The notes under the pieces are model-generated. The model worked only from the letters and a program-made list of their open reading frames with translations. It was not told the origin of the DNA and ran no database searches. The translations under genes were made by a program, and so were the position numbers. From Bacilli bacterium (GTDB lineage: Bacteria; Bacillota_I; Bacilli_A; RFN20; CAG-826), in assembly GCA_045615545.1 (NCBI GenBank), contig JAZLFA010000067.1, positions 279 through 64,278 of the forward strand: a DNA stretch of 64,000 nt. The letters are read 5' to 3'. This document shows positions 3,092 to 63,145 of the stretch, piece after piece. Within the stretch, counting starts at the first letter, position 1. Each line of letters starts with the position of its first letter.

Positions 3092-3571
3092 ATGAATAAA
3101 ACAATTTATGACTTCGTAATTAATGATTATTTAGGTAATCCGGTTAATTTTAACAAATTTAAAGGAAAGGTATTACTTATTGTAAATACCGCGACTAAGT
3201 GTGGATTTACCAATCAATATAATGATTTAGATGCACTATATGAAAAATATAAAAGTAAAGGATTAGAGATTTTGGATTTTCCATGTAACCAATTCTTATT
3301 TCAAGCACCAGGAACTTCTAAGGAATATCATGATGCTTGTAGGCTTAAGTTTATGGTGGATTTCTATCAATTTAATAAGATAGATGTTAATGGTAAAAAT
3401 GAACATCCTTTATATCGTTATTTAAAAGATCATAGTGACTCTAAAAGAATTAGATGGAATTTTACCAAGTTCCTCGTTGATCGAAAGGGTAATGTTAGAT
3501 ACCGCTTTGAACCAGAAAATAAACCATTATCTTTCGAAAGTACAATAGTGAAGTTACTTCAAGAAGAGTAA
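3092..3571 (+). CDS. gpx: Glutathione peroxidase
   Basis: Active-site Cys (KCGFT) and the NQF and WNFTKFL motifs. Confidence 0.85.
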   Translation: MNKTIYDFVINDYLGNPVNFNKFKGKVLLIVNTATKCGFTNQYNDLDALYEKYKSKGLEILDFPCNQFLFQAPGTSKEYHDACRLKFMVDFYQFNKIDVNGKNEHPLYRYLKDHSDSKRIRWNFTKFLVDRKGNVRYRFEPENKPLSFESTIVKLLQEE

Positions 3572-3599
3572 TATAACTAAGGCTCCTAACTTCACATTA

Positions 3600-3628
3600 G
3601 AGACTTCTAGTACTGGGAGTCTCTTTTC
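3600..3628 (+). terminator. Rho-independent terminator (GAGACT...AGTCTC hairpin followed by TTTT)
   Basis: Perfect 6-bp GC-containing stem and T-run immediately after gpx. Confidence 0.6.
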
Positions 3629-3687
3629 AATGAGAAAAAGCTATTTTTTTGATCAATAAAATATTATTAAATAAGTATAGTAAAAAT

Positions 3688-3744
3688 TTGATAAAATAAT
3701 ATCAAAAACATTGAAAATATAAGATAAAATGATATAATATTATC
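3688..3744 (+). promoter_or_regulatory. hipBA promoter (TTGAAA 3711-3716, extended -10 TGaTATAAT 3730-3738) with two palindromic candidate operators (TTGATAAAATAATATCAA 3688-3705; GATATAATATTATC 3731-3744)
   Basis: Hexamers and inverted repeats read directly; the operator role is inferred from HipB/XRE autoregulation. Confidence 0.45.
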
Positions 3745-3746
3745 AA

Positions 3747-4025
3747 ATGAACGATAAATTAGAATGGAAAACTAATAAAGAAAGGCAATTAGAGATTGCA
3801 AATCGCTTGAAGCGTCAACGTAAAGCGCTTAAACTATCACGAGAAAAATTATCCCTTTTATCAAATGTTCCTTCTCCGACAATTAGAAGATTTGAAGATA
3901 GTGGTGATATTTCCTTAGGGAGTCTTGTGGCTATTTTAGTTGCCCTAAATCATGAAGAGGACCTTTCTTTTATTGTGAGAGACATAAATTATTTAGATAT
4001 TAAGGATGCTTTCAAAAATGATTAA
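3747..4025 (+). CDS. hipB: HipB-like XRE-family HTH antitoxin
   Basis: 92 aa, HTH (LKLSREKLSLLSNVPSPTIRRFE); overlaps the downstream hipA-like gene by 20 nt. Confidence 0.7.
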   Translation: MNDKLEWKTNKERQLEIANRLKRQRKALKLSREKLSLLSNVPSPTIRRFEDSGDISLGSLVAILVALNHEEDLSFIVRDINYLDIKDAFKND

Positions 4026-5127
4026 GTATTTAGATGTATTTTTTAATAATTATTTAGTGGGCACGTTGGGCTTATTTAATAATAGAATTATTTTCTCTTA
4101 TAGCGATTCTTGGATTAAGGATGGTTTTTCTATTTCTCCTTTTTATCTTCCGTTAAAAAAAGAAACATTTACATGTAATCATAATAAGTTTAGTGGCTTA
4201 TTTGGTGTATTTAATGATTCGTATGTTGATAGTTGGGGTGAGTTACTTATAAACCGTTATCTATCTTCTAAGGGGATTAAATATAATGAATTATCCATCT
4301 TAGATAAACTCTCCATTATTGGTAATGTTACTATGGGCGGCTTGACTTACAAGCCTTCTAGCGATATAAAAATGTATCCAAATAATATTTCTTATGATGA
4401 ACTATATGAGGATATTTGCAATATTATTGAAAGCAAAAAGGCCAACAATATTGATGATTTATTTTCTCTTGGTGGTAGCTCTGGGGGTACAAGGCCAAAG
4501 ATTTTAACTAGGATTAATAATAGGGATGTAATTGTTAAGTTTAGAGCTAAAATAGATCCGCTTGATATAGCTAAAAAAGAATATCTCTATTTTAAATACG
4601 CACAAAAATTAGGTATTAATGTTCCTAATTTCGACTTAATTCATGGAAAGAAAAGTGACTATTTTGTCATAGAAAGATTTGATAAACAAGATGATATTAG
4701 AAAGTTTGTTATTTCCGCTTCTGGTCTTCTTGAGTGTGATTATAATATCCCTAGTTTAGATTATTTAGATTTATTTAAATTAACTAGTATATTGTCTATT
4801 GATGATAAAAAAGAAATATTAGAGTTATTTCGACGTATGGTGTTTAATGTCGTTTTTGAAAATATGGATGATCATGCGAAAAATTTCTCTTATATCTATA
4901 ACCCAAACAATAAACATTATGAACTTTCTCCCGCTTATGATTTGACCCCTTCAACAACTTATTTTGGCGAACACACAACTAGCGTTAATCATAAAGGTAA
5001 AGATATTCTTGATAGTGATTTACTTGCTGTTGCTACTACATATGGAATAACAAAACAAGTAGCAACTGATATAATTATTCTGGCTAGGAAATTAAAAGAA
5101 CAATATGATAGAGAAATAGATCTATAA
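4006..5127 (+). CDS. hipA: HipA-family serine/threonine kinase toxin
   Basis: HipA N-terminal domain signature, SLGGSSGGTRPKIL loop and catalytic motif ENMDDHAKNFS (D-x-H-x-KN). Confidence 0.75.
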   Translation: MLSKMIKYLDVFFNNYLVGTLGLFNNRIIFSYSDSWIKDGFSISPFYLPLKKETFTCNHNKFSGLFGVFNDSYVDSWGELLINRYLSSKGIKYNELSILDKLSIIGNVTMGGLTYKPSSDIKMYPNNISYDELYEDICNIIESKKANNIDDLFSLGGSSGGTRPKILTRINNRDVIVKFRAKIDPLDIAKKEYLYFKYAQKLGINVPNFDLIHGKKSDYFVIERFDKQDDIRKFVISASGLLECDYNIPSLDYLDLFKLTSILSIDDKKEILELFRRMVFNVVFENMDDHAKNFSYIYNPNNKHYELSPAYDLTPSTTYFGEHTTSVNHKGKDILDSDLLAVATTYGITKQVATDIIILARKLKEQYDREIDL

Positions 5128-5295: not shown

Positions 5296-6432
5296 ATGGC
5301 AAAAAAGAAAACTAAACAATATAACAAAACAAAAAAGCAAGTTAAGAAATTAGCAAAAAGTAATCCTAAAATTTTTGCTATATTTATTTGTCTACTTTTG
5401 GTAGTAGGAACAGTAGGAGGAGTTATCTATTTTCTAAATAACAATAAAGGAAATGATAAATCTTCTAGTAGTATTATCCCTGTTTCTACTGGTATATCAT
5501 TCCATTTTATGGAACTTGGTAATAAATATACTGGTGACTCGATATATATTAAAGCAGGAGAAACTGATATTTTAATTGATGCTGGTAGTAGACAATCTAG
5601 TGCCTCCGCGATTAAAAGCTATGTTAATCAATATTGCTTAGATAATAAGCTTGAATATGTTATCGCTACTCACGCGGATCAAGATCATATTTCTGGCTTT
5701 GTAGGCACTAAAAGTGAGCCAGGTATTTTTGATAGCTATAAGATAGATACATTGATTGATTTTTCTAAATCTAATAAGGATACATCTATTTATAATAGCT
5801 ATATATCATTAAGAGACTCTAAAGTCAGTAGTGGAGATATAACTAATCACTATACTGCTCAAGACTGTATAAGTGGTAATAAATCCGCGAAAAAGATCTA
5901 TACCTTAGCGGAAGGTATCACTATGGAAGTGCTTGATCAAAAATTCTATCGTGAATCAACTGGTGATGAGAATGATTATTCTGTATGTCTACTATTCACC
6001 CAAGGAAGTTCCCATTATCTATTTACTGGTGATTTAGAAAAGAAAGGTGAAGAGTCATTAATAAGCTTAAATAACTTACCAACTGTTGAATTATTTAAAG
6101 CGGGACATCATGGTAGTTATACCGCTAGTAACGATAACTTATTAAGCGTAATTAAACCTAAAGTCGTAGTGGTTACCTGTGTAGCGGGATCAACTGAATA
6201 TACTAGTGTTAAAGAAAATACATTCCCATCTCAAGCTATGATTGATAGGGTAAGTAAATATACTAGAGAGATATATGTCACCACAATGAGCAATAATACC
6301 GATAAAGGATATGAATCATTTAATGGTAATATCGTATACAGCAGTAGTGATGGTGTTACTCACATAGTTAATTGTTCAAACAATAACACCTTCTTAAAAG
6401 ATAGTGATTGGTTTAAGGCTAATCGCCATTAA
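5296..6432 (+). CDS. Membrane-anchored MBL-fold metallo-hydrolase (ComEC C-terminal-domain-like), predicted extracytoplasmic
   Basis: Basic N-terminus followed by one TM helix; HxHxDH motif (ATHADQDHISG); additional His/Asp ligands downstream. Confidence 0.65.
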   Translation: MAKKKTKQYNKTKKQVKKLAKSNPKIFAIFICLLLVVGTVGGVIYFLNNNKGNDKSSSSIIPVSTGISFHFMELGNKYTGDSIYIKAGETDILIDAGSRQSSASAIKSYVNQYCLDNKLEYVIATHADQDHISGFVGTKSEPGIFDSYKIDTLIDFSKSNKDTSIYNSYISLRDSKVSSGDITNHYTAQDCISGNKSAKKIYTLAEGITMEVLDQKFYRESTGDENDYSVCLLFTQGSSHYLFTGDLEKKGEESLISLNNLPTVELFKAGHHGSYTASNDNLLSVIKPKVVVVTCVAGSTEYTSVKENTFPSQAMIDRVSKYTREIYVTTMSNNTDKGYESFNGNIVYSSSDGVTHIVNCSNNNTFLKDSDWFKANRH

Positions 6433-6502: not shown

Positions 6503-8953
6503 TTAATCTTTAGTATGTTTCTTTTTCTTTAATAACAAAGTTAATGCTGCAGCCGATAGCGTTAATAAGCTTGCTGATGCAATAACAACAATTAATACAG
6601 TTTGATCTTCTGATTCAGATATTTTCCAACCTTTGTTAATGTTTTGTTGCAGTTTTACAGGATTTCTCCCGGCAAAATCTGTTAAAGAATATGCAGTTGC
6701 ATTCATCATGTATACATAGTCATATTTTGCTGCAAATTCGCCATACGTAGCATCAACAGCAGTTGCATTTGTTAATATTCCTTGAGCTTCGTTTGATAGC
6801 AAATCCCAGTGGAAATTAACGGTTTTACCTGCTGGTACTTCAGCTTCGCTATCGCCTAATGATTCCCAAATACCACTTAAAACATGAGAATCGCCATCAA
6901 CCTTACGTTGGCATTCACACGCAATCAATTTGTTAAATTCATTAGCGAAATTATTAGCTTCATCTTCATATCCTAAGAATATTGATACCTCGTTCCAATA
7001 TTGCCCATCATTTGAACATAGATAGAAAGTATATGTTACAGTACCTGTTTCGTTACATATTAAACCTTCTGTTTCATTATAGATCCAATTTGTTCTTGCT
7101 GAACCTACCCTTAATCTTGGAGCGTACTTACTTATTTCTGAAGAATTTTGAAAATATATTTTGAGCTTATCGCCTTTTGACATTTGGAATGTTGCTTTAT
7201 ATTCTTTGTGCTCAGATAAACCATCCCATTCAGTTCCTTTATGAAGGTCTGATTTTGCGTCTTGTCCATTAACCATGAAATAGAAACCATTGCTTGGCAT
7301 AGAAGGAACCGCTAGATGGTATTCATGTTTAGTGCTAGAAGATTCAAAATAAATATCAAATGTTTGAGAAGAAACGCCAGCTTTTGAATCGATATTAATT
7401 TGGCAATTTAGACCACTCAAAATTGTTCCCTTAAAATATGGGTGAGACCATGAAACATTAACTGTTTCTTCGCCACCTGATTCTCCATACCATTTCACAT
7501 TTCCTGAACTGTCAACGAAATAAATCTTACACTCTGCATTATTTTCAAAAGTTAAACCTTTTACAACATATTCATTTCCGTCTAGTTTATCTGGATTTTT
7601 TATTAGATTGTATTTTCCATCTCTAGTCCATCCCGCTTCTCCATAAGTTCCTGTAAAATCCCCAGCTAGATAAGTTCCACTATTTATTTGCCAATGAGCA
7701 TATAAAGTTGTGGGTTCGGTAAAATCACTGTTTTTTGCACTAGTTCCATCTGCGTTATAATACTGGGTTCCTCCAGAAGATGCTGTAAAGTAACCTAAAA
7801 ATACGCAGTTTGTTTTGATAGGAAGTTCACCGCTTTGCAATACTGGCATCGGTTGATCATATCTTGCAGTAATGTTTACTTTTTCGGATGTTCCGCCTGC
7901 AAAATTAAATGTTATTGTTACATCTTGACTGACTTCTTCCCAATAAGGATATAAGGTCTTATTGTTGTTTTCAGAAAATGCCCCTTTTAAAGCATAATCA
8001 CATGTTGTTCCGCTAGAATTTGTTGACCATCCTGATTGAATATATCCCAATCTTGTAAAAATTTTATCTTTTAACGTAATGTCAAAACCCTGGTCTTTAG
8101 TATCGCTAGCATCTGAACCAGTGCCATGTGTGCCCTTTTTATATGAAATTGTATATTGAGACAATGAGAACCTATATGACATGTTGTTAGTATCAGTTAT
8201 GTAATATGCTTTTAGAATATAGGTGTTTGGTTTTTGTACATAGGCCTTCCAATCGCCACCTTTATTAAAGTCAGCATTCTCGCTTGCCCCATGCCCAGTA
8301 TCATTGTTAACATCGTTTGCATAATGGTCTGTGCGCACGCCGTTTGAATATGCTGTAACTAAAATACCACTCCAGCTACTAGTTGTTGTAATAGTAGCTT
8401 GTTGACCATTATCAATTGATGTCATTTTTACCATATCAGGATTAGATCCTGTTACGTACCAGCCATCATCATAATATTTTGACCATGTTCCATCGCATTT
8501 TCCTCCGCCGCCTGACCATGTTGCAGTAGAAGTTGTTATTGTAAAAAAATCATTTCCAGCATTACCGTCTTTAGGTATTGTTAAGTCTTTGGTTTGTGCT
8601 CCCCAATCGCTAACCGCACCTGTGCCGCCATTAACTCTAACAAAAATTACATTTGAATAATCCTTTGGTAAATCATACTTCCAAACATTCCCGGAGACAA
8701 AAGTCATTCTAACACCAGGCCAACTAGCATTTTTATCGTCACCAGTATAACAATATGCCGCTATTGCTGCACTGTTTTCTGTCCACCAACTATATTCCAT
8801 TTTGCAATAAATTGTTGCAGGACATTCATTCACAGCTTCTGCTTTTTCCACAGCTTTATTTCCAAATGAAATTCCAGTAAGAACACCAATAGATGTTAGT
8901 AAGGAAATTCCTAGCAAAGATAATAACTTAAAATGTGATCTTTTTTTGAACAT
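6503..8953 (-). CDS. Large surface protein A (816 aa): N-terminal signal/TM, CBM25/26-like module (WPGVRMT), Flg_new (Listeria-Bacteroides) repeats, conserved C-terminal module plus TM anchor plus KKKK tail
   Basis: Signal-like N-terminus; W..WPG..M motif; repeats ending ...TLYPYW / ...TLYAHW; C-terminal SESEDQTVLIVVIASASLLTLSAAALTLLLKKKK; paralog of the 9862..12948 protein. Confidence 0.7.
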   Translation of the reverse strand: MFKKRSHFKLLSLLGISLLTSIGVLTGISFGNKAVEKAEAVNECPATIYCKMEYSWWTENSAAIAAYCYTGDDKNASWPGVRMTFVSGNVWKYDLPKDYSNVIFVRVNGGTGAVSDWGAQTKDLTIPKDGNAGNDFFTITTSTATWSGGGGKCDGTWSKYYDDGWYVTGSNPDMVKMTSIDNGQQATITTTSSWSGILVTAYSNGVRTDHYANDVNNDTGHGASENADFNKGGDWKAYVQKPNTYILKAYYITDTNNMSYRFSLSQYTISYKKGTHGTGSDASDTKDQGFDITLKDKIFTRLGYIQSGWSTNSSGTTCDYALKGAFSENNNKTLYPYWEEVSQDVTITFNFAGGTSEKVNITARYDQPMPVLQSGELPIKTNCVFLGYFTASSGGTQYYNADGTSAKNSDFTEPTTLYAHWQINSGTYLAGDFTGTYGEAGWTRDGKYNLIKNPDKLDGNEYVVKGLTFENNAECKIYFVDSSGNVKWYGESGGEETVNVSWSHPYFKGTILSGLNCQINIDSKAGVSSQTFDIYFESSSTKHEYHLAVPSMPSNGFYFMVNGQDAKSDLHKGTEWDGLSEHKEYKATFQMSKGDKLKIYFQNSSEISKYAPRLRVGSARTNWIYNETEGLICNETGTVTYTFYLCSNDGQYWNEVSIFLGYEDEANNFANEFNKLIACECQRKVDGDSHVLSGIWESLGDSEAEVPAGKTVNFHWDLLSNEAQGILTNATAVDATYGEFAAKYDYVYMMNATAYSLTDFAGRNPVKLQQNINKGWKISESEDQTVLIVVIASASLLTLSAAALTLLLKKKKHTKD

Positions 8954-8987
8954 AAAATAAATCCACCTTTTTCTATAAAATTATCGC

Positions 8988-9003
8988 CACATTATTAATG
9001 GCC
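8988..9003. repeat. IR-L, CACATTATTAATGGCC: inverted-repeat partner of 9815..9830 (14 of 16 matching)
   Basis: Reverse complement GGCCATTAATAATGTG versus GGCCATTAAAATTGTG at 9815-9830; GGCC is rare in this AT-rich sequence. Confidence 0.6.
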
Positions 9004-9021
9004 GAAAAATATGTCATTATT

Positions 9022-9050
9022 TATATATAATATATAAAGCGTACTGTCAA
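9022..9050 (-). promoter_or_regulatory. Strong sigma70-like promoter on the minus strand (TTGACA, 17 bp, TATATA) facing surface-protein gene A; lies inside the IR-bounded segment
   Basis: Reverse complement of 9045-9050 is TTGACA; 17-nt spacer; TATATA at 9022-9027. Confidence 0.5.
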
Positions 9051-9135
9051 GTGTGTATAATGTGCGTATACACATATATACTATGTATATAAAATTGATC
9101 AAAAAAAATATTCATTTTTGTAAATTCGCACAATT

Positions 9136-9750
9136 TCACGTATTGGTGGCATTTTGACTTTGTTCTTTTCTTAAGTAACGATATAAGGTGTTTGGATGCA
9201 CTCCAATTCTTCGTGCAATTTTACGAACACTCACTCCTTTTGAAAGAAGATAATGTATGCGTTTATCATGCCGTTCACAAAGCAAAGAAACGTTCTTACT
9301 CCCTTTAGGTCTACCGAGAGTTACTCCACTTTTACGTAAGCGAGATAATGCCTCTTTTGTACGCTGAGAAATAAGCTGTCTTTCAATCTCTGCACTTAAT
9401 GAAAATGCAAATGCAATAACTTTAGATTCTATATTATCTCCAAGAATAAAGTTATCTTTTATAGTGATCACTTTTACACCTTTATTCATGCAGATATTTA
9501 ATATCTCCATAATCATATAAAAACTTCGACCTAATCTAGATAGTTCACTCGCTATTAAAATATCATTTTCTTTTAGGTTTTTAAGCAATATTCCAAGCCT
9601 TCTTTTTTGATATTTTTTCTTACCACTTATAGTCTCCTCAATGTATCTTGAGATTATTAGATTGTGTACTTCACAATATCTATTAATTTCATACTTTTGA
9701 TTTTCTACTGATTGAGTGTCTGTACTCACCCTTATGTATACGTATACCAT
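9136..9750 (-). CDS. Serine site-specific recombinase, Hin/Gin invertase or resolvase family
   Basis: N-terminal MVYVYIRVSTDTQ catalytic Ser motif, SRLGRS and GRPKG motifs, C-terminal HTH (VRKIARRIGVHPNTLYRYL); 204 aa. Confidence 0.85.
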   Translation of the reverse strand: MVYVYIRVSTDTQSVENQKYEINRYCEVHNLIISRYIEETISGKKKYQKRRLGILLKNLKENDILIASELSRLGRSFYMIMEILNICMNKGVKVITIKDNFILGDNIESKVIAFAFSLSAEIERQLISQRTKEALSRLRKSGVTLGRPKGSKNVSLLCERHDKRIHYLLSKGVSVRKIARRIGVHPNTLYRYLRKEQSQNATNT

Positions 9751-9814
9751 ATATCAAATATTAATATCCTCCTAAATTGATTATAGAGAATATAAAAGGA
9801 TTCACTAAATAATT

Positions 9815-9830
9815 GGCCATTAAAATTGTG
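9815..9830. repeat. IR-R, GGCCATTAAAATTGTG: inverted-repeat partner of 8988..9003; overlaps a weak -35-like TTGGCC upstream of gene B
   Basis: See IR-L; lies 32 nt upstream of the gene B start codon. Confidence 0.6.
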
Positions 9831-9861
9831 GCAGTATTACTATCCGATTGGAGACACTATT

Positions 9862-12800
9862 ATGAAACACTTATTTTCTCGTTCAAAAACATTCGCATTA
9901 ATTGCATTATCTTTACTTACTGGTATTGGTGTTTTTAGTGGTGTGGCAGTTAGTAATGGAAATATTGAACAGGCAGAAGCTCAAGATAATGCAACAATAT
10001 ATTTCAAAGACCAATCATGGTGGAACGCAGATGGTGCTCATACCTACGTTCATTACTGGGGGGGTACTTCATCAACAACATGGCCTGGCACAAGTACAAC
10101 GGATAAAGGTAATGGTTATTGGGAAGCAACAATCCCAGCTAATTCAAGTGGTTTTCAATTTGTTAGAGTAAGTAGCTCGGGTGTCGACTGGGGTGCTAAA
10201 ACTGTTAATCTTTCTTTAGATTCTGAAGGAAAAAACCTATACACTCTTAGTAATACAGCAGTGTGGGGCGGTAATGGTGCGAGTGCTACCGCTTCGTATT
10301 ATAATAATGAATCAATAACTTATTATTTTGCAGGAAGTGAATGGGGTTGGGGTGATATTAATACTATGCCAACTTTCTCCAAAAAAGATAACATTGAATA
10401 TGAATTGTTAAATGTTGTTGTCAGAAGCGATAATGCAACTTTTAAAGGCTTCTTTACTCATGGTTGGCAGGCCGATTATATAAATCCAAATCAAACTGAA
10501 TCCGGACCTCAATCTGGTGATTATAAAATTGAGTTTGATGGTAATGCAAATGGTGTGATTAAAAAAGCTGGTACATACAATATCTATTTAACACCAAGCA
10601 ATGGAAAAATGTGGCTAAATGTTCAGAAATATGATGTTACATATAACGTCAACGGAGCTACTTCTGGTTCTAATTCAACTCAGACTGGTTTTATTGATCA
10701 AACATTTACAACAAGAGCATCGATAGGAATATCTAAAACAGGATATACATTCCAAGGTTGGAACACTAAATCTGATGGTACAGGCACAACATATGCCGCA
10801 AATACAGCAGTAAATTTAGGATTAAACGCTGGTGATTCATTAACCTTATATGCTAAATGGTCTCCAAATACTAACACACCATATACGGTTCAACATAGAT
10901 TACAAAATACAACTCGTTCTAGTTATGTAGTTGATTCCGAACGCACAGAAGAATTACTAGGCACAACAGGTGCGCAAACAAATGCGCAAGCGCTAACAAT
11001 TGAAGGTTTTACCGCTAAAACAATAACTCAACAAACAATCGCTGGAGACGGCTCAACAATCGTAAATGTTGATTATGATAGAAAACCATACACATTAACT
11101 TTTAATGCAGATGGTGGCACTTGTAGCGAATCAACAAGAACCGTTTATTATGGCTGTCAATTTGGCACTCTTCCAACACCAACAAAAACCGATGGAAGTG
11201 AATTTGGTGGATGGTATACCGGAAGTGGAGGAACTGGAACATTAATTTCTTCTTCTACCTTAGCGACTGGTAATTTGACAGTTTATGCTAAGTGGGTAGC
11301 TGCAATTATAAAACACAATGTTACACTTACTGCTGGAACTGGAATGACCGGAGCGGATCAAACAACTGAAGTTGCAGAAGGCTCAACTTTTACAATTCCT
11401 TCCACAAATCCTTTTGCCTTAAATGGTGGTTATGTTTTTAAGGAATGGACAGATGGTACTAACACATATGCACCTGGTGCCACTATTACAATGGGTACTA
11501 GTGATATAACATTAACTTCTAACGCTAGAATTCAATATGATCTAAAAATCACACATCAAGGTTCAACATCTACTATTCCGTTTACCTATGGTTCAAGTAA
11601 ATTTACTATTGCTGAAATCTCTGTTATAAAAGGAGATATCGTAGAGCTATATGATTATTCTACTAGTATAGCTGGTACAAAAGTACATGCTGGTATTGAT
11701 GGAGCGTCCGATGGTTGTTGGAGAGATAATGGCACAACCATTACTAGCGATGAAGAAAGTACACAAACATTCTCAATTGAAATAAAACCAGGTGATGAAA
11801 ATAGAGATAAGTATTTACTTACAAAATATACTGGCACAGTTGATACTGAGTATTCAGTTTATGTTGGTGGCACACGTTATGTAATGGAACAAACTGATGA
11901 TACTCCTACAGGATTTACCGCTCAATATAAAGCAACTACTTCTGGGGCACTTAAAGATGACAAAGTAACTTTTAAAAGCAACAAAGGTCAAATGGATTTT
12001 GCTGTATCTAGAGACGCTACATCAAATACCTATATTGGTGAAGATGGAAAGCAACACATAAAAGCAGGAAATGACGGTGTACTAGATATTTATCTTAAAA
12101 TTAAAGAAAACGGCGGCTCTACAACATATAGTTCATTTGTAAGTGGATTAAGATCGGAAAAATCAGGATATAGATTGATTATACGAAACAACACCGCCAA
12201 TACTGTTCGAACAGTAGATTTAGCTAATGGTACAGATAGCTCAGGTAATACACAATACGAAGCAATGAATATCCATGTTGAAAAAGACGAATATATATAC
12301 TTATATAAAAACGAAAATGATGTGGATAGAAGTTTCAGCGAAGGTGTTGTTCAACCAGATGGTTCCGTTCCTAATAGTTTTGAAAAAAGCAACGGCAATG
12401 CACTGTGTAAAACAACTGGAGATTATAATTTCTATGTAAAATCTACAGACTTCTTATGGAATGTCAACTCAATATGGATTGCAAAGGGTGGGAATCCAGA
12501 AACTGATGCAATCGCCTTTGCACAAGGTTTTAACTCCGCTATTGGAGCCGAGTGTTATGATCAGGGTGGCCATAAGGATACGCTAAAAAGTGCATGGGAT
12601 GCGCAAGCTAGTTTATTTGCTACTCTTTCCGACCAAGCAAAAGCTTATTTTAATGGTAGTTCAACATCAAGCGATACAAACATTATTAATTGTTTAGCTA
12701 AATATGATTATGTCTTCATTAAATACTGGGGGGTTTTATTTACCGAAACTTCTGATGATTTTATGGCAAGACATAGAAATTCAAATGGCGATATCAAATA

Positions 12801-12948
12801 CCCGCAAAGCGCTAATCGTAGCTGGAAAATATCTGACTCTGAAGATCAAACTATATTAATTGTTGTTATTGCTTCTGCAAGTTTATTATTGTTATCAGCT
12901 ACAGCCTTAACATTATTATTAAAGAAAAAGAAACGCTTAGATAAATAA
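9862..12948 (+). CDS. Large surface protein B (about 1028 aa): N-terminal signal/TM, CBM25/26-like module, multiple Flg_new repeats, conserved C-terminal module plus TM plus KKKKR tail; paralog of gene A
   Basis: Start moved to ATG 9862 with GGAGA RBS (ORF track 9826); WPGTSTT motif; repeats GYTFQGWNTKSDGTG...LTLYAKW and EFGGWYTGSGGTG...LTVYAKW; C-terminal SDSEDQTILIVVIASASLLLLSATALTLLLKKKK. Confidence 0.7.
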   Translation: MKHLFSRSKTFALIALSLLTGIGVFSGVAVSNGNIEQAEAQDNATIYFKDQSWWNADGAHTYVHYWGGTSSTTWPGTSTTDKGNGYWEATIPANSSGFQFVRVSSSGVDWGAKTVNLSLDSEGKNLYTLSNTAVWGGNGASATASYYNNESITYYFAGSEWGWGDINTMPTFSKKDNIEYELLNVVVRSDNATFKGFFTHGWQADYINPNQTESGPQSGDYKIEFDGNANGVIKKAGTYNIYLTPSNGKMWLNVQKYDVTYNVNGATSGSNSTQTGFIDQTFTTRASIGISKTGYTFQGWNTKSDGTGTTYAANTAVNLGLNAGDSLTLYAKWSPNTNTPYTVQHRLQNTTRSSYVVDSERTEELLGTTGAQTNAQALTIEGFTAKTITQQTIAGDGSTIVNVDYDRKPYTLTFNADGGTCSESTRTVYYGCQFGTLPTPTKTDGSEFGGWYTGSGGTGTLISSSTLATGNLTVYAKWVAAIIKHNVTLTAGTGMTGADQTTEVAEGSTFTIPSTNPFALNGGYVFKEWTDGTNTYAPGATITMGTSDITLTSNARIQYDLKITHQGSTSTIPFTYGSSKFTIAEISVIKGDIVELYDYSTSIAGTKVHAGIDGASDGCWRDNGTTITSDEESTQTFSIEIKPGDENRDKYLLTKYTGTVDTEYSVYVGGTRYVMEQTDDTPTGFTAQYKATTSGALKDDKVTFKSNKGQMDFAVSRDATSNTYIGEDGKQHIKAGNDGVLDIYLKIKENGGSTTYSSFVSGLRSEKSGYRLIIRNNTANTVRTVDLANGTDSSGNTQYEAMNIHVEKDEYIYLYKNENDVDRSFSEGVVQPDGSVPNSFEKSNGNALCKTTGDYNFYVKSTDFLWNVNSIWIAKGGNPETDAIAFAQGFNSAIGAECYDQGGHKDTLKSAWDAQASLFATLSDQAKAYFNGSSTSSDTNIINCLAKYDYVFIKYWGVLFTETSDDFMARHRNSNGDIKYPQSANRSWKISDSEDQTILIVVIASASLLLLSATALTLLLKKKKRLDK

Positions 12949-13359: not shown

Positions 13360-14757
13360 ATGCTGTTAACAAAGAAATTTATTCTCAAACCAACTAGAAC
13401 TCAATGTATTATATTGGGGCATTTTACTTATGCTGCTAGCAAACTATTCAATGTTGGTAACTACGAAAGAAAAGAATATAAAAATCTTGGTTTTGATAAA
13501 GAGCCAGATTGGTATGAACAAAAGAAAAGGTTAAAGGACAATATTTGGTATAAATCTTTACCTAGTCAAACTGCTCAAGATGTCCTTAAAAATCTTGATG
13601 AAAGTTGGAAAAGTTATCATACGCTTAAATATAAATTTGACCATGGAAAGAAATTGTCTGGTGAACCAAAATCCCCTTATTATAAAAAAGATGGTAGCCA
13701 TACAAATATCACATTTTTAAGTAATGGATTTAAAGTTGTTGGAAATAAAATAAGACTAACGATTCCTAAAGCAATGAAAGAACATCTTTTAAATAAATAT
13801 GGAATACATGATAATTTTATTTATCTAAATATAAAAGAACCAATTGATGGAATGATCAAAGAAATATCTTTTTCCTATAGAAATGATGAAGAATATGATG
13901 TTTATATTAATTATGAAACATTTGTTAAACCAATTAAAAACGATAACGGAAGACATATTTCTATTGATCTAGGTATTAATAATCTAGCAACTATATATGA
14001 TAATAAGGGACATTCTTTTATTATTTCCGGCAACAGCTATTTAAACACTTTATATTATTACAATAAAAGAATATCTTATTATCAATCTATTAATGACCAA
14101 GCTCATAAAAAAGATATAGATAATAAAAATCATATTTATACAACTAATAGAATCAATAAATTATATGAGAAGAAAAATAAGATTATAAATTATATTATCC
14201 ATAAAACCACTAAAACAATCGTGGATTATTGTGTTCATAACAACATCACTAAAGTAATTATTGGTGATGTTTCTGGTATAGATAATATTAAGTCAAATAA
14301 AATAGGTAAACAAAAGAAGGAATTTAATCAAAAATTACATAGTTTACCATTTGATAAAATTTATCATTGTCTTGAATATAAATTAATAAGGAAAGGAGTA
14401 ACTTTAATAAAACAAAATGAGGCATTTACAAGTCAATGTTCTCCAACTTCAAAAGAAGTTTCTAAAGAATATGCGGACAAAAACAAACGTATCTATCGTG
14501 GACTATTTAAAAGTGGTAACGATATTTACAACGCAGATTCTGTTGGCGCTTTTAACATATTAAGAAAATATTACCAGGAGAACAATACAAGTAGAAATTT
14601 AAATTACAAATGCCTTTCTAATCCAACAAAAATAAGTATCTCTGTAACTTCTAGTCCTTATAAGGAAGAAGTAGGAGTATTGGGTGGGAACCACCCTGAT
14701 ATCTATGCACTTAAACGTGCCTTAGATTCGATGCTCGGTAATTCAATTGCCGAGTAA
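13360..14757 (+). CDS. tnpB: TnpB-like protein (IS200/IS605 OrfB / IS1341 family) with apparently degenerate RuvC-II and zinc finger
   Basis: RuvC-I HISIDLGINNLAT; TSQ motif; RuvC-III NADSVGAFNIL; RuvC-II region reads VIIGDVSGI (Glu to Gly by eye); zinc finger reads CSPT...KSGN (1 of 4 Cys kept); no tnpA nearby. Confidence 0.8.
   Translation: MLLTKKFILKPTRTQCIILGHFTYAASKLFNVGNYERKEYKNLGFDKEPDWYEQKKRLKDNIWYKSLPSQTAQDVLKNLDESWKSYHTLKYKFDHGKKLSGEPKSPYYKKDGSHTNITFLSNGFKVVGNKIRLTIPKAMKEHLLNKYGIHDNFIYLNIKEPIDGMIKEISFSYRNDEEYDVYINYETFVKPIKNDNGRHISIDLGINNLATIYDNKGHSFIISGNSYLNTLYYYNKRISYYQSINDQAHKKDIDNKNHIYTTNRINKLYEKKNKIINYIIHKTTKTIVDYCVHNNITKVIIGDVSGIDNIKSNKIGKQKKEFNQKLHSLPFDKIYHCLEYKLIRKGVTLIKQNEAFTSQCSPTSKEVSKEYADKNKRIYRGLFKSGNDIYNADSVGAFNILRKYYQENNTSRNLNYKCLSNPTKISISVTSSPYKEEVGVLGGNHPDIYALKRALDSMLGNSIAE
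14737..14754 (+). repeat. Direct repeat copy 2 (GGTAATTCAATTGCCGAG), covering the last codons of the TnpB-like ORF
   Basis: See copy 1. Confidence 0.7.
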
Positions 14758-20329: not shown

Positions 20330-22132
20330 TTATTCAAATAATTCTGGATAGTTGCTCTTGAAGTAATCGTAAACAGCTTGATCATGATATTTGATTTCCA
20401 TCTTTTCAAGATAGTATTTAGTAGCAAGTGTGCCATATGATTCACTTACACCAACAATCTTTGTGATTTCGTTAATCATTTCTTCCATTGCTTCTGCACC
20501 ACGTGTGTTACGGTATGAGTTGGCGCTTGTCTTAGAAAGTTTTGAGGAAGAACAAGCTTCTTCAATTTGAACAACATAATATGTTTTACTTGAAGAATCG
20601 TAATGTAAGATGTCTTTTGTTGGATCATCATCAACACCGATACGGCTACTTGTCTTTAAGTAGTTCTTACCGTTGATTCTTGCAACATAAGCATTTTCAT
20701 CTTCTGGAACGATATAGTCATAACTTCCATCAATTAATTGCCAACGATCAACTTCTTTTCTTTCTTCAGCAGTTTCTTTTACACCATTAGCAACACCGAT
20801 ATTGAATAATCTACTTCTAATAGAATCTGGTAATTGTGTTAAGCCACCATTTTTAATGAACCAACCAGTTGTGGTGTGGTCTTTAAGTTTGAGTTCTCTT
20901 TCTTTGATTTCTCTTCCAACTTCAATTGGATATGAGTTACTACCAGTAAATTCGCTTTCAGCAGATGTATCTGTTAATGCTGGGTTAACTTTGATGGATT
21001 CATACTTCTTCATCATGTCACCATATTCGGTTCCAAGATAAACTGTATCACCAATAACTTCATCATCAAGTTTGAAGACGTTACCGTTTGATTTTTCTTG
21101 GATGTCTGCAATGATTGCTTTTTGTTCATCTGTTAATCCAGGTGCACCAACTAAGATGTTGGAGTAATCTTTAAAGACATCAAGTGTGATTTCGTCTTCG
21201 CTTGGTAAAGCGTTGATTCTTTCAACTAAGTGGTTTGCGACATAGTCAGCAACCATTGGGTATTCACTATTATTAGCAATAGTAATGATATTCACTTTAC
21301 GAGCGTAGCTACGTCCGAGAGTGTTATATGTTTCATCTAATAGATATTGCTCAGTCAATAATTGAGTAGAGATATCTGGGATGAGCTTCTTTTCTACATA
21401 GTGATAGGTATCACCAGTGAAGTATTCTTTATGTAAGAAGGCTTCGAAGACTTGTTCTGGTTCATAATCAGGTGTTAATAAACCTTCATATAATTCCCCA
21501 GCAAAGCCTGAAACTAATGGATCAGCAACATCTTCCATAGCACCTTTTAAAGCGACTAAGAATTTCTTTTCTGAGAAGATGCTTCTATCGCTATAAGAGC
21601 CAGATGAGATTTTATCGTACATAGTTGTAGCGATACGATCTTGGATGGTGCTCCATTTTGCCCAGACACGGATGAGTTCTGATTTACACGCATCAGCGTC
21701 TTCGCTAACTTCTTTAATATCTTCTGGATTATCATCGTTAACACGTTTTCCATCATCGTTAACTGTCCAGTAAGCTTTGTGTGTTTTGACAAATGAATTT
21801 GTCTTTGGTGTTGTTGCTGCATTCATTTCAGCAAAACATTCTTCTAATGTGATGTCTTCGGCACTAGGTGCTGGAGTAACATTTCTAGAATAGAAACCAA
21901 TGACTGATTGAGAATAACGATATAAAACTTCGTTAAGGACATCGTCACCGACACCGCCATCTCTAATTGCGTCATAAACAACACTTGCGACGTTGTTATA
22001 AACTTCTTCGTCAAATTCTACTAATTTAGAATCATAATCGGTTGGCTTTGCAATGATTTCATCACAAGCTGTTAATCCTAATAATCCGATAGCAGAGAGG
22101 ACTAATACTTTAGCAATCTTTTTACTTAACAT
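20330..22132 (-). CDS. Large lipoprotein (about 600 aa), paralog of the upstream lipoprotein
   Basis: Start set at ATG 22132 (AGGAGG RBS) giving MLSKKIAKVLVLSAIGLLGLTAC lipobox; overlaps the upstream gene by 11 nt. Confidence 0.6.
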   Translation of the reverse strand: MLSKKIAKVLVLSAIGLLGLTACDEIIAKPTDYDSKLVEFDEEVYNNVASVVYDAIRDGGVGDDVLNEVLYRYSQSVIGFYSRNVTPAPSAEDITLEECFAEMNAATTPKTNSFVKTHKAYWTVNDDGKRVNDDNPEDIKEVSEDADACKSELIRVWAKWSTIQDRIATTMYDKISSGSYSDRSIFSEKKFLVALKGAMEDVADPLVSGFAGELYEGLLTPDYEPEQVFEAFLHKEYFTGDTYHYVEKKLIPDISTQLLTEQYLLDETYNTLGRSYARKVNIITIANNSEYPMVADYVANHLVERINALPSEDEITLDVFKDYSNILVGAPGLTDEQKAIIADIQEKSNGNVFKLDDEVIGDTVYLGTEYGDMMKKYESIKVNPALTDTSAESEFTGSNSYPIEVGREIKERELKLKDHTTTGWFIKNGGLTQLPDSIRSRLFNIGVANGVKETAEERKEVDRWQLIDGSYDYIVPEDENAYVARINGKNYLKTSSRIGVDDDPTKDILHYDSSSKTYYVVQIEEACSSSKLSKTSANSYRNTRGAEAMEEMINEITKIVGVSESYGTLATKYYLEKMEIKYHDQAVYDYFKSNYPELFE

Positions 22133-23954
22133 AGTAACAAGCTCCTCCTGGGACAACCCAATCATTATTAATGCCAGCGATAATACGTTCTGTTTCTGTC
22201 ATCTTAAATCCGATAACACAACGTGTTGGGATTAAACGATAATCAGTAGTTGCATCAACGTATTCAACACGGTTAGCATTTTGTAATTCGATTAATTCGG
22301 CATATGTTCTCCAAGCCTTATTTAAAGTTTCTTTAGCAGAGTTGGAGTTTGTATATCTTGTAGCAGTGATATATTCAGTGATCTTTTTGCCTAAATCTAT
22401 ACCATCAGTGTTATTGAATCTTAGACCGACTGAATATTTTTCGTATAAACGATAATCGTAAGTGGAATCAAATGACTTAATAGCAGATTTAATTTCGCTT
22501 GCACGTGTTTCGTATACGGATTTATCTGTTGAATAGATGTAGTTGACATATGTGTTCTTGTCTTTTCCATCTGGATCAACTGGATATTTTTCATCACCTG
22601 GAACTGTGTTGGTGTAATATTCTTCTAATGAAACATCATATGAATCTTTTCCACCTTCACAGAAATCATAGATTGATTTTTGTAAAATCATGAAGTGAAT
22701 ACCATGTTCACTACGAACGCCAATAATAACATTACCGTTTTCATCAGTTAAGACTGATTTGCCAGTACTAGCATCAATGAGTTTGAATCTAGGATTTAAT
22801 AGTGTTTCGTCATCAACAACGAGTGGGAAGTTGATTGCATCACCAATATTATCTTCATCAAGAACCTCATTTGTAATAACAAATGGGTTATGGAAGTTTA
22901 AGTATTTGTTCCAAAGAACATTTCTTGGATAGTAGTGTGAGTTGTTACCATTAACTTCACGACCTTGTTTATCAGCAACATCTTCTGCAACTTCACCAAT
23001 TTTTAAGAATGCTCCGTAAGGAACTTCTTGTAAGCCAAGATTTGTAAAGAAGTCTTTAGCAGTGATTGCATCACTTACTTCAGCATTTAATCCTAAACCT
23101 TCTTCAATCGCACTGTTGCTTGCTTCACTAATAGCTTCATAAGCATAAATACCTAATTTAAATTCGTTAACGAATGAAGTGGTTGTGGTCATAATACCAA
23201 GGTCACCACCTTTTTCAGCACTACCAGTATCTTCTGAGATCTTTGTAGCAACTTCTGAGAAAACGAATGATGTGTCAGTTAAATACTTAATTGATTCGCT
23301 TAAGTTTTTAGCTTCGCCTTCGGAAATAGTGCCATCATAGAAACTAGATGCACCTTCTGCGACTTTTACTAAAACGTGACGAACGTGGAATGGATACGAA
23401 CTCTTAATAGAGCCTTGTGTTTGTACGGCTTCACCTTGATCATCAACACCAATATATTCCTTTGTTAAGGTTTCCTTGTTGTCGACGAAGTATTTGTCTT
23501 CGATTTCTTCCTTTTCGATTTCATATTTGAAGTATTCTAATAATTCATCTGCGTCTTCACAGCCGTGTGAATCAAGAATTTTTTGCCATTCTTCATCATA
23601 TGTTGTTCCGTTGGTTTTACGGTTTTGTTCAGCTTCTTGCTGAGCGCCAGTAACATTACCTTTTGCTTCGGATAGAATCTTTTCTTTTGATTTCTTGTAA
23701 ATTGTTGTACTTGAAGAATCGAATTCATGACGGATGATTGATTCCAGAATTGCATTGTAGAATTTGGAAATTCCATCAGATGATTCACGATACTTGTCAT
23801 AGATATCATTGGTTAAGACGGTAACTTCTTTTCCAGCGCTATCTTTGAATGTAACGATAGCTTTTTCTTTAGTTGTAACTTCGTTACATGCGGCAAGTGC
23901 GAGTACTGCAATGAGGGAAGAAACTAAACCGATTGATAGTTTTTTCTTGTTCAT
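22122..23954 (-). CDS. prsA: Large lipoprotein with a parvulin-type PPIase domain (PrsA-like foldase, extended)
   Basis: Lipobox LAACNE; parvulin motifs VRHVLVKV and GGDLG...EFK. Confidence 0.6.
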   Translation of the reverse strand: MNKKKLSIGLVSSLIAVLALAACNEVTTKEKAIVTFKDSAGKEVTVLTNDIYDKYRESSDGISKFYNAILESIIRHEFDSSSTTIYKKSKEKILSEAKGNVTGAQQEAEQNRKTNGTTYDEEWQKILDSHGCEDADELLEYFKYEIEKEEIEDKYFVDNKETLTKEYIGVDDQGEAVQTQGSIKSSYPFHVRHVLVKVAEGASSFYDGTISEGEAKNLSESIKYLTDTSFVFSEVATKISEDTGSAEKGGDLGIMTTTTSFVNEFKLGIYAYEAISEASNSAIEEGLGLNAEVSDAITAKDFFTNLGLQEVPYGAFLKIGEVAEDVADKQGREVNGNNSHYYPRNVLWNKYLNFHNPFVITNEVLDEDNIGDAINFPLVVDDETLLNPRFKLIDASTGKSVLTDENGNVIIGVRSEHGIHFMILQKSIYDFCEGGKDSYDVSLEEYYTNTVPGDEKYPVDPDGKDKNTYVNYIYSTDKSVYETRASEIKSAIKSFDSTYDYRLYEKYSVGLRFNNTDGIDLGKKITEYITATRYTNSNSAKETLNKAWRTYAELIELQNANRVEYVDATTDYRLIPTRCVIGFKMTETERIIAGINNDWVVPGGACYYVK

Positions 23955-60499: not shown

Positions 60500-60949
60500 A
60501 TGAAAACAACAGGGATTAAGATAATTGCCCAAAATAAAAAGGCCTCATTTAATTATTTTCTAAGTGATTTTACGGAATGTGGAATTGCTCTTTTGGGAAC
60601 GGAAATTAAATCATTACGTAGTAAAGGAGCATCATTAATTGATGCATATGTGGTTATTCGTAACCAAGAGGCAGAAGTTGTCAATATGCACATCCCTGAA
60701 TATGACAAAGGTAATTTATTTAATCATGAACCTCTTAGAACAAGAAAGCTTTTATTACATAAAAAAGAAATTCGTTGGTTTTTAGCTCAAACAAAAACTG
60801 GTGGGTTTACAATTGTTCCAACTAAGTTATATTTTTCTAAAGGAAAAGCAAAAATTGAAATTGCTTTAGCAAAAGGTAAAAAGAATTATGATAAACGCGA
60901 AACAATAAAAAAACGCGATCTTCAAAGGGAAATTGACAAAGGTTTCTAG
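60500..60949 (+). CDS. smpB: SsrA-binding protein SmpB
   Basis: Full-length SmpB sequence. Confidence 0.95.
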   Translation: MKTTGIKIIAQNKKASFNYFLSDFTECGIALLGTEIKSLRSKGASLIDAYVVIRNQEAEVVNMHIPEYDKGNLFNHEPLRTRKLLLHKKEIRWFLAQTKTGGFTIVPTKLYFSKGKAKIEIALAKGKKNYDKRETIKKRDLQREIDKGF

Positions 60950-60950
60950 T

Positions 60951-62192
60951 ATGAAATTCGAAGGATTGGATGCCAAAGGAAGAGAAAGTTATCAAAGGGA
61001 TGATTTTGATGCGTTTTTAAAGTCTGTTAAGTTTTCTTTTAATTTGCCTGCTATTCATATTGCGGGCACAAATGGTAAAGGTAGTACAGCTATATATTTA
61101 GCTTCTATTTATCAAAAAGCTGGCTATAAAGTGGGATTATTTACTTCTCCTGCTTTAATTAAGAATAATGAAATGATTTCAATTAATTCAGTGAACATTA
61201 CCGACGAGGAAGCAGAAGAAATTATTGCCCCTGTTAAAGATAAAATAATTAAGTATAAACTTTCAGAATTTGAGATTGAAACATATATTGCTTTTACATA
61301 TTTTCTAAAAGAAAAATGTGATGTTTCTATCATAGAATGTGGAATGGGTGGCTTAATTGATGCAACAAATGTATTCACCCCTATTCTTTCAATTATTACA
61401 TCTGTTTCATTAGAACATACTGATTTTTTGGGTCATTCATTTAATGAGGTTGCAAATCACAAAGCTGGAATAATCAAAAAAGAAGTCCCGGTATTAATTG
61501 GAAAACTTAATGAAGAAAGTGAAATGACTATTTCAGAAGTTGCTGTTGCTAACAAAAGTAAACTATTTAAGACTAGGGAATTTAATCATATTAAAGTAAC
61601 ATCAAGTGGCATTGTTTTTTCTTATGCATTATTTAACGATATTAAACTTAACTCAAACGCTTATTACGAAGCTAAAAATGCGGCATTGGCATTAGAAGCC
61701 TCTTTAATACTTAAAGATAAACTTCCTTACGATGAATCAATCATTAGTAACTGTTTTGTTGATACTAGAGTTCAAGCACGTTTAGAAGAGTTTAAGAAAT
61801 GTTCTACCGTTGTTATTGATGGCGCTCATAATCCTGAAGCAATTGATGCTTTAGTTGATTCAATGTTTAAAAAATACCAAGGTATTCCTATTCATATTAT
61901 TTTTGCTAATTTCATCGATAAAAATATGACAATTATGTTGCCTAAACTCTCGGTATTGTCTAAAGACTTAACATTAACAACTTTTGATAATCCTCGCGCA
62001 AGAAAGGAAGAAGATTATTTTATCTTTTTAGATGACTTCCCATTTGAACAAGATTATAAGAAATTGATCAAAGAAAAAATGGCAATGTATCCAAATGACA
62101 TTATCTTAGTAACTGGGTGTTTGGCTTTTGCAGGTATAGTTTCAGAACAATTTAAGAAAGGGGAATATGATGATGTTTGCCCCGCTTCTTAA
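60951..62192 (+). CDS. folC: Folylpolyglutamate synthase / dihydrofolate synthase (Mur ligase family)
   Basis: ATP-binding HIAGTNGKGST and Mur-ligase central domain. Confidence 0.8.
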   Translation: MKFEGLDAKGRESYQRDDFDAFLKSVKFSFNLPAIHIAGTNGKGSTAIYLASIYQKAGYKVGLFTSPALIKNNEMISINSVNITDEEAEEIIAPVKDKIIKYKLSEFEIETYIAFTYFLKEKCDVSIIECGMGGLIDATNVFTPILSIITSVSLEHTDFLGHSFNEVANHKAGIIKKEVPVLIGKLNEESEMTISEVAVANKSKLFKTREFNHIKVTSSGIVFSYALFNDIKLNSNAYYEAKNAALALEASLILKDKLPYDESIISNCFVDTRVQARLEEFKKCSTVVIDGAHNPEAIDALVDSMFKKYQGIPIHIIFANFIDKNMTIMLPKLSVLSKDLTLTTFDNPRARKEEDYFIFLDDFPFEQDYKKLIKEKMAMYPNDIILVTGCLAFAGIVSEQFKKGEYDDVCPAS

Positions 62193-62956: not shown

Positions 62957-63145
62957 ATGGAAGAAGAAAAAAATGTAACGGAAACAAATGAAGAACATAC
63001 TGAAGCTGAAATACCTGAAGGAAAAGATGACTCAAAGATATCATTTCCTTGGGTAGGACTTATTATTACAGGTGTTCTTGTTATTGCTGCAATTATTTGT
63101 ATAGTGGTTATTTTCCAATTTGGTGGGCCAGTAAATCCAAAATGA
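62957..63145 (+). CDS. Hypothetical small membrane protein (62 aa, acidic N-terminus plus one TM)
   Basis: ORF track only. Confidence 0.3.
   Translation: MEEEKNVTETNEEHTEAEIPEGKDDSKISFPWVGLIITGVLVIAAIICIVVIFQFGGPVNPK

Follow-up and report, generated by a model that had tools for sequence, protein, structure and literature searches.

A candidate serine-invertase switch between two paralogous CBM26-type surface proteins of an uncultured gut Bacilli bacterium

What is the role of a DNA recombinase gene that lies between two divergently oriented genes for related surface proteins? This question is raised by positions 6503-12948 of a 64,000-nucleotide (nt) stretch of contig JAZLFA010000067.1 (assembly GCA_045615545.1), which derives from an uncultured Bacilli bacterium and is called the window below. 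An initial annotation of this region had described two large genes, here termed A and B. Both are present, but the region contains three genes, not two: a gene for a serine recombinase of 204 amino acids (aa) is located between them and had been overlooked, together with the inverted repeats on either side of it. No other feature of the locus is as informative as this invertase gene with its repeats. We consider it rather probable, though by no means certain, that they form a Hin-like invertase toggle between A and B as alternative surface proteins of the starch-binding type.

The recombinase and its inverted repeats

The 204-aa protein can be assigned to the serine DNA invertases of the Mpi family. 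With 276.6 bits over residues 1-200, it exceeds the cutoff of 272 set for the NCBIfam equivalog model of Mpi-family master DNA invertases (NF009949), and Pfam assigns a Resolvase domain (2.5e-31) as well as HTH_7 and HTH_38 at 164-195. The active-site motif YIRVSTDTQ, including the serine, is visible in the sequence. Promoter inversion would be the predicted activity of such a protein.

The gene is enclosed by two 18-nt inverted repeats, one in front of each surface protein gene (Table 1), which are identical at 16 of 18 positions. The repeat pattern has two matches in the 64-kb window, compared to 0.08 expected, and when the two spacers were shuffled 1000 times, an inverted repeat of this length arose in three cases. 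The repeat-bounded segment (9004-9814, ~811 bp) holds the recombinase gene, a TATAAT box upstream of it and, in the stretch from the stop codon of the recombinase to repeat 1, a candidate outward promoter termed P_out, with a perfect -35 and an AT-rich -10 box. Upstream of B, no promoter comparable to P_out was seen, and Rfam gave no credible RNA family between the genes. This is a Hin-type layout, with short inverted repeats that bound an invertase gene and a candidate outward promoter. The start of gene B has to be considered here: the program listing of open reading frames (ORFs) opens it at TTG 9826, but we placed it at ATG 9862, because the database protein P0002 has 1028 aa and a GGAGA sequence is found upstream of this ATG.

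Based on this arrangement, we propose the following mechanism. A and B would be alternative cell-surface proteins of an uncultured Bacilli bacterium from the herbivore gut. They would be exported via their N-terminal signal peptides and held by a C-terminal transmembrane (TM) helix with the KKKK tail in the cytoplasm (a predicted type I topology), and would display an N-terminal CBM26-type module, Flg_new repeats and further unassigned beta-rich domains. The invertase, expressed from within the segment by a promoter of its own, would recombine the two 18-bp sites and flip the segment 9004-9814. The single promoter P_out would then read into A in the orientation found in the window or, after the flip, into B. 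Two variants of a starch-adherence protein would in this way be expressed reversibly and to the exclusion of each other.

Related loci with the same layout

The closest recombinases are 68-74% identical to that of the window. We read the loci of four of these recombinases, and three of the loci (L004, L005, and L093) repeat the layout in the order gene, inverted repeat, recombinase, TTGACA-type promoter, inverted repeat, gene. In ERZ1767638 (L004 and L002), P0003 points leftward and is followed by a repeat, the recombinase, TTGACA-17-TATAAA, the second repeat and a rightward gene encoding a 952-aa member of the protein family that is defined by the C-terminal module described below. The repeat of L005 extends over at least 75 nt and includes the ribosome-binding site (RBS) and first codons of the divergent gene pair, with TTGCAT-17-TATAAA inside. 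L093 harbors two divergent genes for proteins with signal peptides, and TTGACA-16-TATATA is found inside. Here, the repeat (ATGGCCGTTTA...GTTAA) is an island of ~20 nt, and the rest of the 5' untranslated regions (UTRs) is unrelated, which argues against the repeat as mere promoter similarity between paralogs.

L003 represents a variant of this layout, in which a SIR2-like gene is located between the recombinase and the promoter-plus-site block, upstream of the family member P0007. This gene (3344-4795, with a SIR2_2 domain) would be cargo if the segment inverts. The TTGACA-17-TATA(A/T)A block is placed identically in L003 and L004. Likewise, the position of repeat 1 is homologous in L004 and L093, and the longer repeat of L005 is found at the same place. 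The sequence of the site shifts between loci while its dyad symmetry and position are kept (GCCAY-N7-RTGGC in the window, GGACA-N7-TGTTC in ERZ1767638). A scan of Joint Genome Institute (JGI) metagenomes with the recombinase gave matches of at most 61% identity, in which the layout was absent. Short contigs carrying only the recombinase were also considered as evidence for heterogeneity but dropped, since most contigs of the collection are short anyway.

These comparisons bear on a simpler explanation, namely that A and B are static paralogs, each with its own promoter and expressed either constitutively or under regulation. The element GGCCATTAA-N3-TGTGGC would then be an inherited operator, a part of the promoter or a 5'-UTR hairpin, and the recombinase would have its site of action elsewhere, as a resolvase or invertase, or be the remnant of a mobile element. 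ERZ1767638 fits this explanation, because there the element precedes every gene of the family, even where a recombinase is not the neighbor (in L001 and at the third gene of L004), and could be a conserved 5'-UTR or operator element. The element can also fold into a hairpin of 5 bp and was classed as terminator-like, a TnpB/IS605 gene is located just downstream of B, and the second orientation of the window locus was not observed. On the other hand, several findings argue against static paralogs. In four loci, the only consensus -35 box (TTGACA) is located inside the bounded segment and at one side of it. The flanking UTRs of L093 have nothing in common apart from the repeat. Furthermore, the recombinase passes the Mpi equivalog model and has no transposase beside it, and a homologous invertase adjoins a segment that has demonstrably been inverted, as described in the next section. 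We therefore regard static paralogs as unlikely, if by no means negligible.

As a side observation, L001 contains two copies of the tandem motif TTGCGCAGTAGTTGCGCAGTA at 1165-1225, ~200 nt upstream of P0004, which may be a regulator binding site.

An inverted segment beside a homologous invertase

The recombinase P0166 is 67% identical to that of the window. In L076, L077, and L078, its gene follows two divergent genes, one for a CBM26 protein and the other for a SusF-like CBM protein, and alpha-amylase and GH77 genes adjoin this pair. Within the 228-nt spacer of the pair, perfect 15-bp repeats (ACACAAAAATCCACC and GGTGGATTTTTGTGT) enclose a segment of 70 bp. Its orientation in L078 is reversed relative to L076 and L077 (different metagenomes), and P0166 lies ~1.7 kb from the segment that is seen in both orientations. 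The inversion indicates that the invertases of this clade adjoin invertible promoters which choose between starch-binding surface proteins. A repeat of the same type surrounds an 80-bp segment in L006, and the P0185 loci (L006-L012) show one orientation throughout. The contigs of P0165 were set aside as relatives, since they belong to an unrelated organism of higher G+C content. By analogy to L076-L078, we propose that the invertible unit at the window locus may have been enlarged so that it encloses the invertase itself.

The short segments of these loci also raise the alternative that the invertible unit of the window is only a promoter cassette of ~60 bp (8995-9054), which would switch A alone ON or OFF like the 70-bp inverton of L076. 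Such a cassette would be bounded by repeat 1 and the partial inverted half-site ATAATGTGCG at 9055-9064. Invertons of 70-80 bp indeed occur in the related loci, and P_out lies between the two halves of a partial inverted match, CGC(C)ACATTAT / ATAATGTGCG. However, this match comprises ~10 nt with an insertion or deletion, a clear equivalent was not seen in L004 or L093, and repeat 2 in front of B would be left unexplained. A cassette of this kind is very improbable in our view. Regarding the half-site as such, 9055-9064, just beyond TTGACA, corresponds in part, and in inverted orientation, to the outer half of repeat 1 (ATAATGTGCG vs CGCCACATTAT at 8984-8994). It may bound a promoter-only invertible unit or belong to a pre-promoter block that is conserved in L003 and L004.

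The proposed switch between A and B has to be weighed against a number of contrary observations, one of which is the element preceding all family genes of ERZ1767638 described above. The two repeats differ at two central positions, which could hinder crossover by a serine recombinase, depending on the site of the 2-bp overlap. The promoters are consensus matches in AT-rich DNA, and a scan gave no excess over shuffled sequences. Furthermore, the species is represented by one contig in the collections, which presents a single orientation of the locus, and no inversion was seen here. A, B, and the recombinase occur once each, on the same 82.6-kb NCBI contig, in a collection of 15 billion proteins. 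A second assembly for checking the orientation is absent, since no further contig came up when the recombinase and A were looked up by exact match.

Domain architecture of A and B

The initial annotation had described A and B as paralogs, and by their sequences they are diverged paralogs. They share 25-27% identity, with BLASTP E values of 3e-22 and 1e-14, and the similarity spans the N-terminal third and the C-terminal quarter. The order of elements is the same in both: a signal peptide, a CBM26-type module, Flg_new repeats, unassigned domains, a C-terminal domain, a TM helix, and the KKKK tail (Table 1). Both are of the exported type. Their middle parts matched no Pfam family, and in A this unassigned central region is beta-rich.

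Table 1. Features of the locus, with positions and strands in the 64,000-nt window
Feature	Position	Strand	Details
Gene A	6503-8953	minus	816 aa; ORF listing; identical to database protein P0001
Recombinase gene	9136-9750	minus	204 aa; between genes A and B
Gene B	9862-12948	plus	1028 aa; identical to database protein P0002
Inverted repeat 1, putative recombination site	8986-9003	minus	GGCCATTAATAATGTGGC toward A; 32 nt before the ATG of A
Inverted repeat 2, putative recombination site	9815-9832	plus	GGCCATTAAAATTGTGGC toward B; 29 nt before the ATG of B
Candidate outward promoter P_out	9022-9050	minus	TTGACA 9050-9045, 17-nt spacer, TATATA 9027-9022; toward A
Candidate -10 box TATAAT of recombinase promoter	9780-9785	minus	inside segment, upstream of recombinase; by eye
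CBM26-like module of A	8459-8824	minus	~aa 44-165; SWPGVRMT, IFVRVN, WGAQTKDL
CBM26-like module of B	~9982-10356	plus	
Flg_new region of A	7691-8155	minus	~aa 267-421; two repeats, best 267-335
Flg_new repeats of B	~10696-11295	plus	
C-terminal module of A	6503-7036	minus	conserved domain, linker, SEDQT, TM helix 6530-6601, KKKKHTKD tail
C-terminal anchor module of B	12409-12948	plus	TM 12850-12921
3' coding block (juxtamembrane, TM, tail)	12823-12934	plus	112-nt inverted repeat with 6517-6628, 88% identity

The Flg_new repeats were confirmed by hidden Markov model (HMM) search. Pfam PF09479 (cutoff 27 bits) matched A with 40.8 bits (E 2.5e-10) and B with 86.6 bits (E 1.2e-24), and the NCBIfam model TIGR02543 matched B with 40.6 bits relative to a cutoff of 20.95 (E 2.3e-10). 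The extent of the second repeat of A was taken by eye from the sequence. The ending LTLYAKW, which had been ascribed to the repeats of both proteins, applies to B (LTLYAKW, LTVYAKW), whereas the repeats of A end differently (TLYPYW, TLYAHW).

The N-terminal modules of A and B are CBM26-like, which is supported by HMM search, a profile comparison with PDB sequences and a fold search. This is in agreement with the initial annotation, which had proposed a CBM25/26-like module based on the motifs WPGVRMT in A and WPGTSTT in B; both motifs are present. CBM26 (Pfam PF16738; gathering threshold 28.1 bits) scored 25.8 bits for A and 21.6 bits for B on the full-length proteins and 29.9 bits on the isolated module of A, and it matched 7 of 12 homologous modules (E<0.01). 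A profile built from the 12 modules and compared to the PDB retrieved Ruminococcus bromii Amy16 (9qf9) with 1.1e-10 and two CBM26 regions, followed by Sas6 (7uwu) with 1.9e-5, and these alignments cover the W..WPG..M..IF core. A structure of the A module was predicted with AlphaFold2 from the 12-sequence alignment, with a predicted local distance difference test (pLDDT) score of 79 and a core above 90; the pLDDT from the single sequence was only 33. In a Foldseek search of the PDB with this fold, ranks 1-24 were alpha-glucan CBMs throughout (Sas6; families CBM20, CBM25, CBM26, and CBM41).

The surroundings of a related protein point in the same direction. P0152 shares the N-terminal module and the C-terminal anchor with A, and its neighbors are alpha-amylase, GH77, CBM48, CBM26, and Flg_new genes. 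This context in a starch cluster supports a starch-related function of the module. The cluster itself (L083, 3603-22448) is a large starch-utilisation cluster of a related bacterium and is broken by an ISL3 transposase. Sas6, one of the structural matches, binds granular starch (bioRxiv 10.1101/2022.11.20.514607).

Some results speak against a role in starch binding. The CBM26 score of B is under the gathering threshold, the Foldseek scores are weak (E 5e-3 to 0.2, template-modelling scores 0.31-0.48), and an amylase gene close to A or B is absent in the window. We regard the modules of A and B as probable binders of alpha-glucan or starch.

The C-terminal module

A and B share the ending AKYDYV ... 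WKIS[ED]SEDQT[VI]LIVVIASASLL...LTLLLKKKK, as had been noted initially, with a C-terminal TM segment and a basic tail without LPXTG. From this tripartite layout, the initial annotation had derived a novel processed C-terminal signal. We searched a profile of the last ~175 aa of A and B against 1.84 billion representative proteins. The module turned out not to be unique to these two paralogs, but is carried by 156 representatives at E <=1e-3, 22 of them at E <=1e-10. The host proteins range from 79 to 1452 aa and have N-terminal signal peptides, and the match almost always reaches their final residues.

What is conserved in this family is a domain of ~100 aa with the pattern A..FA..FN..I...C...(L)..W....L....AK..L.......[KR]YDY[IV]..KY....DF.GR, which is recognizable in A as A..FA..FN...C...W...KYDYV...DF.GR. 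The domain is followed by a variable polar linker, the TM helix, 4-5 K/R residues, and a short tail; in 148 of 150 family members, a TM segment of 20-29 residues precedes 4-5 K/R at the C-terminus. The domain matches no Pfam family (20 members scanned), no NCBIfam model and no PDB sequence. Gram_pos_anchor was found in one of 20 members (E 0.031).

The closest C-termini (P0003-P0012) have the signal peptide of A and B in common with them, but not the CBM module, which instead is common to more distant members (P0120, P0074, P0127, P0099, and P0129). The C-terminal family is modular in this sense.

Is the ending SEDQT-TM-KKKK a new sorting signal of the sortase or exosortase kind, cleaved by a dedicated enzyme? 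Its tripartite layout would agree with this view, and so would its conservation. The juxtamembrane and TM sequence is near-identical in P0005, P0008, and P0010 from other metagenomes. The final 46 codons of A and B differ by 10 synonymous and 11 non-synonymous changes. That the juxtamembrane and TM residues of the subfamily are conserved despite synonymous change suggests a specific interaction and not recent gene conversion, and the many synonymous differences at the 3' ends indicate that the anchor sequence is under purifying selection. Recent gene conversion had been considered as the origin of the 112-nt 3' repeat (Table 1) and was ruled out by the frequent synonymous differences.

The family as a whole argues against a cleaved signal. 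No family-wide short motif is found at a constant distance from the TM segment. SEDQ occurs in only 13 of 150 members, which are those of the closest subfamily P0003-P0012, and LP.T[GAS], NP.TG, or P.TG within 12 aa of the TM segment in none of 148 C-termini. None of the NCBIfam sorting-domain models was reached at its cutoff, the sole match being PEP_CTERM in B (11.4 bits vs 16, E 0.47). In the window, ORFs of at least 150 aa gave no match to sortase, exosortase, or rhomboid families, and the SEDQT-TM-KKKK ending is present in two copies only, those of A and B. Moreover, a TM helix with a positively charged tail is a generic stop-transfer anchor. We consider a new sorting signal improbable, and this reading should not spread without evidence. 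By sequence, the C-terminal module is a real, unannotated family that consists of a domain and a generic stop-transfer anchor without a signature motif. It is most readily understood as a type I membrane anchor.

Independently of this question, the 3' anchor-coding ends are nearly identical and form inverted repeats in the divergent surface protein gene pairs of three independent loci: in the window (88%), in L006 (92%; 3375-3459 and ~5834-5918), and in L076 (77%; ~4667-4781 and ~7841-7952).

Comparison with known systems

The proposed switch would be a variation on the themes of Hin and Mpi, in which a self-contained serine-invertase cassette is located between two alternative adhesin genes. 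The promoter of the Salmonella Hin H-segment drives a gene outside of the segment, and Hin switching acts via the repressor fljA. Like the window segment, the H-segment is slightly shorter than 1 kb, is bounded by short inverted repeats and contains the gene of a small serine invertase, with an outward promoter at one end of the segment (review PMC11868660). In the window, by contrast, a gene is located on both sides, and a flip would swap the paralogs directly instead of acting via a repressor. In addition, the recombinase falls into the Mpi family, its putative sites bear no relation to hix, and inversion is predicted.

The Mpi protein of Bacteroides fragilis, a master serine invertase of capsule promoters, flips 13 promoter regions by which surface molecules are controlled, as stated in the passage of PMC4747536 that cites Coyne et al. 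2003. The match of the window recombinase to the Mpi-family model and the short invertible promoters at surface-molecule genes in L076 and L006 resemble this system. However, the host is a member of the Bacilli and not of the Bacteroidales, and the targets are proteins instead of polysaccharide loci. Furthermore, the two sites within 64 kb flank the invertase gene, which suggests local and not global control. The repeat sequence of the window also differs from the B. fragilis consensus.

A shift of one promoter between opposed paralogous surface protein genes is what inversion achieves in the sap locus of Campylobacter fetus and in the vsa, vsp, and vpma loci of Mycoplasma. The paralogs of these systems, like A and B, have conserved 5' ends. 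Their inversion is RecA-dependent or catalyzed by a tyrosine recombinase at long or intragenic sites. We propose the same kind of promoter shift for A and B, but with a serine invertase inside the segment and short sites upstream of the RBS.

The architecture of A and B is of known kinds, i.e. surface proteins with CBM26 and Flg_new domains, which here are attached by an unannotated C-terminal domain family. They resemble Sas6 and the CBM26 proteins of the R. bromii amylosome (PDB 7uwu, 9qf9) in the CBM26-type sequence and fold and as non-catalytic surface proteins, and P0152, a relative of A, is part of a starch-utilisation cluster. Unlike those proteins, A and B have a C-terminal TM helix instead of a dockerin-cohesin attachment and carry Flg_new repeats, while CBM74 is absent and binding is predicted. 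Their C-termini follow the order of polar stretch, hydrophobic helix, and basic tail known from the LPXTG/sortase, PEP-CTERM/exosortase, and GlyGly-CTERM/rhombosortase systems, but differ from them in having no conserved signature motif, no model match and no cognate enzyme seen in the window.

There is ample documentation of invertible promoters that control capsules, fimbriae, and SusC/D-type proteins in Bacteroidales, and also of such promoters in a few Firmicutes. In our search of literature titles and abstracts, neither starch-binding proteins with CBM26 nor the uncultured Bacilli lineage of the window came up in connection with invertible promoters. We tentatively extend the proposal beyond the window: in an undescribed lineage of gut Bacilli represented by metagenome-assembled genomes (MAGs) from rumen, horse, and reindeer, Mpi-invertase cassettes and small invertons may switch starch-adherence proteins, and the C-terminal domain may have a dedicated partner for surface display or processing, to which its conservation could be due. 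This broader idea is possible, though we would not call it probable. If true, it would mean phase-variable polysaccharide capture in gut bacteria of the Gram-positive lineage. If confirmed, starch adherence would be subject to bet-hedging at the level of single cells, for which substrate variety, phage pressure, or host immunity are possible reasons. The locus would then represent a compact, self-contained two-way genetic switch of ~850 bp. The unannotated C-terminal anchor domain family is now defined and is a candidate for domain databases.

Genomic context

The window is chromosomal DNA. It has a G+C content of ~31% and carries genes for MnmG, RsmG, ParA, Der, RecA, RNase Y, MiaA/B, FTHFS, ArgRS, and SUF proteins. 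The nearest MnmG sequences are 74-80% identical and come from MAGs of uncultured 'Bacilli bacterium' or 'Erysipelotrichaceae', which were obtained from rumen, reindeer, and horse faeces.

The gene downstream of B encodes a TnpB/IS605 OrfB-type protein (13360-14757, plus strand), begins ~400 nt after the end of B and has OrfB_IS605 and Cas12f1-like TNB domains; no TnpA is visible beside it. Upstream of the locus, genes for a HipA-family toxin kinase with HipA_C and Couple_hipA domains (4006-5127) and for a Fic/DOC-domain protein (417-1082) are found on the plus strand. A Mur-ligase-like ORF (60933-62192) was not accepted as evidence for a cell wall, as its size is that of FolC.

Two adjacent genes on the minus strand (20330-22165 and 22122-23954) encode proteins of ~610 aa with lipoprotein signal peptides and the lipoboxes LTAC and LAAC. 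One of them has a PPIC-type rotamase (PrsA-like) domain, and the other is without a Pfam match. The G+C content of this region (20330-23954) is locally raised, as it is in A and B. Finally, an ORF near the end of the window (63049-63864, plus strand) shows a weak, sub-threshold match to BspA-type leucine-rich repeats and possibly encodes another surface protein.

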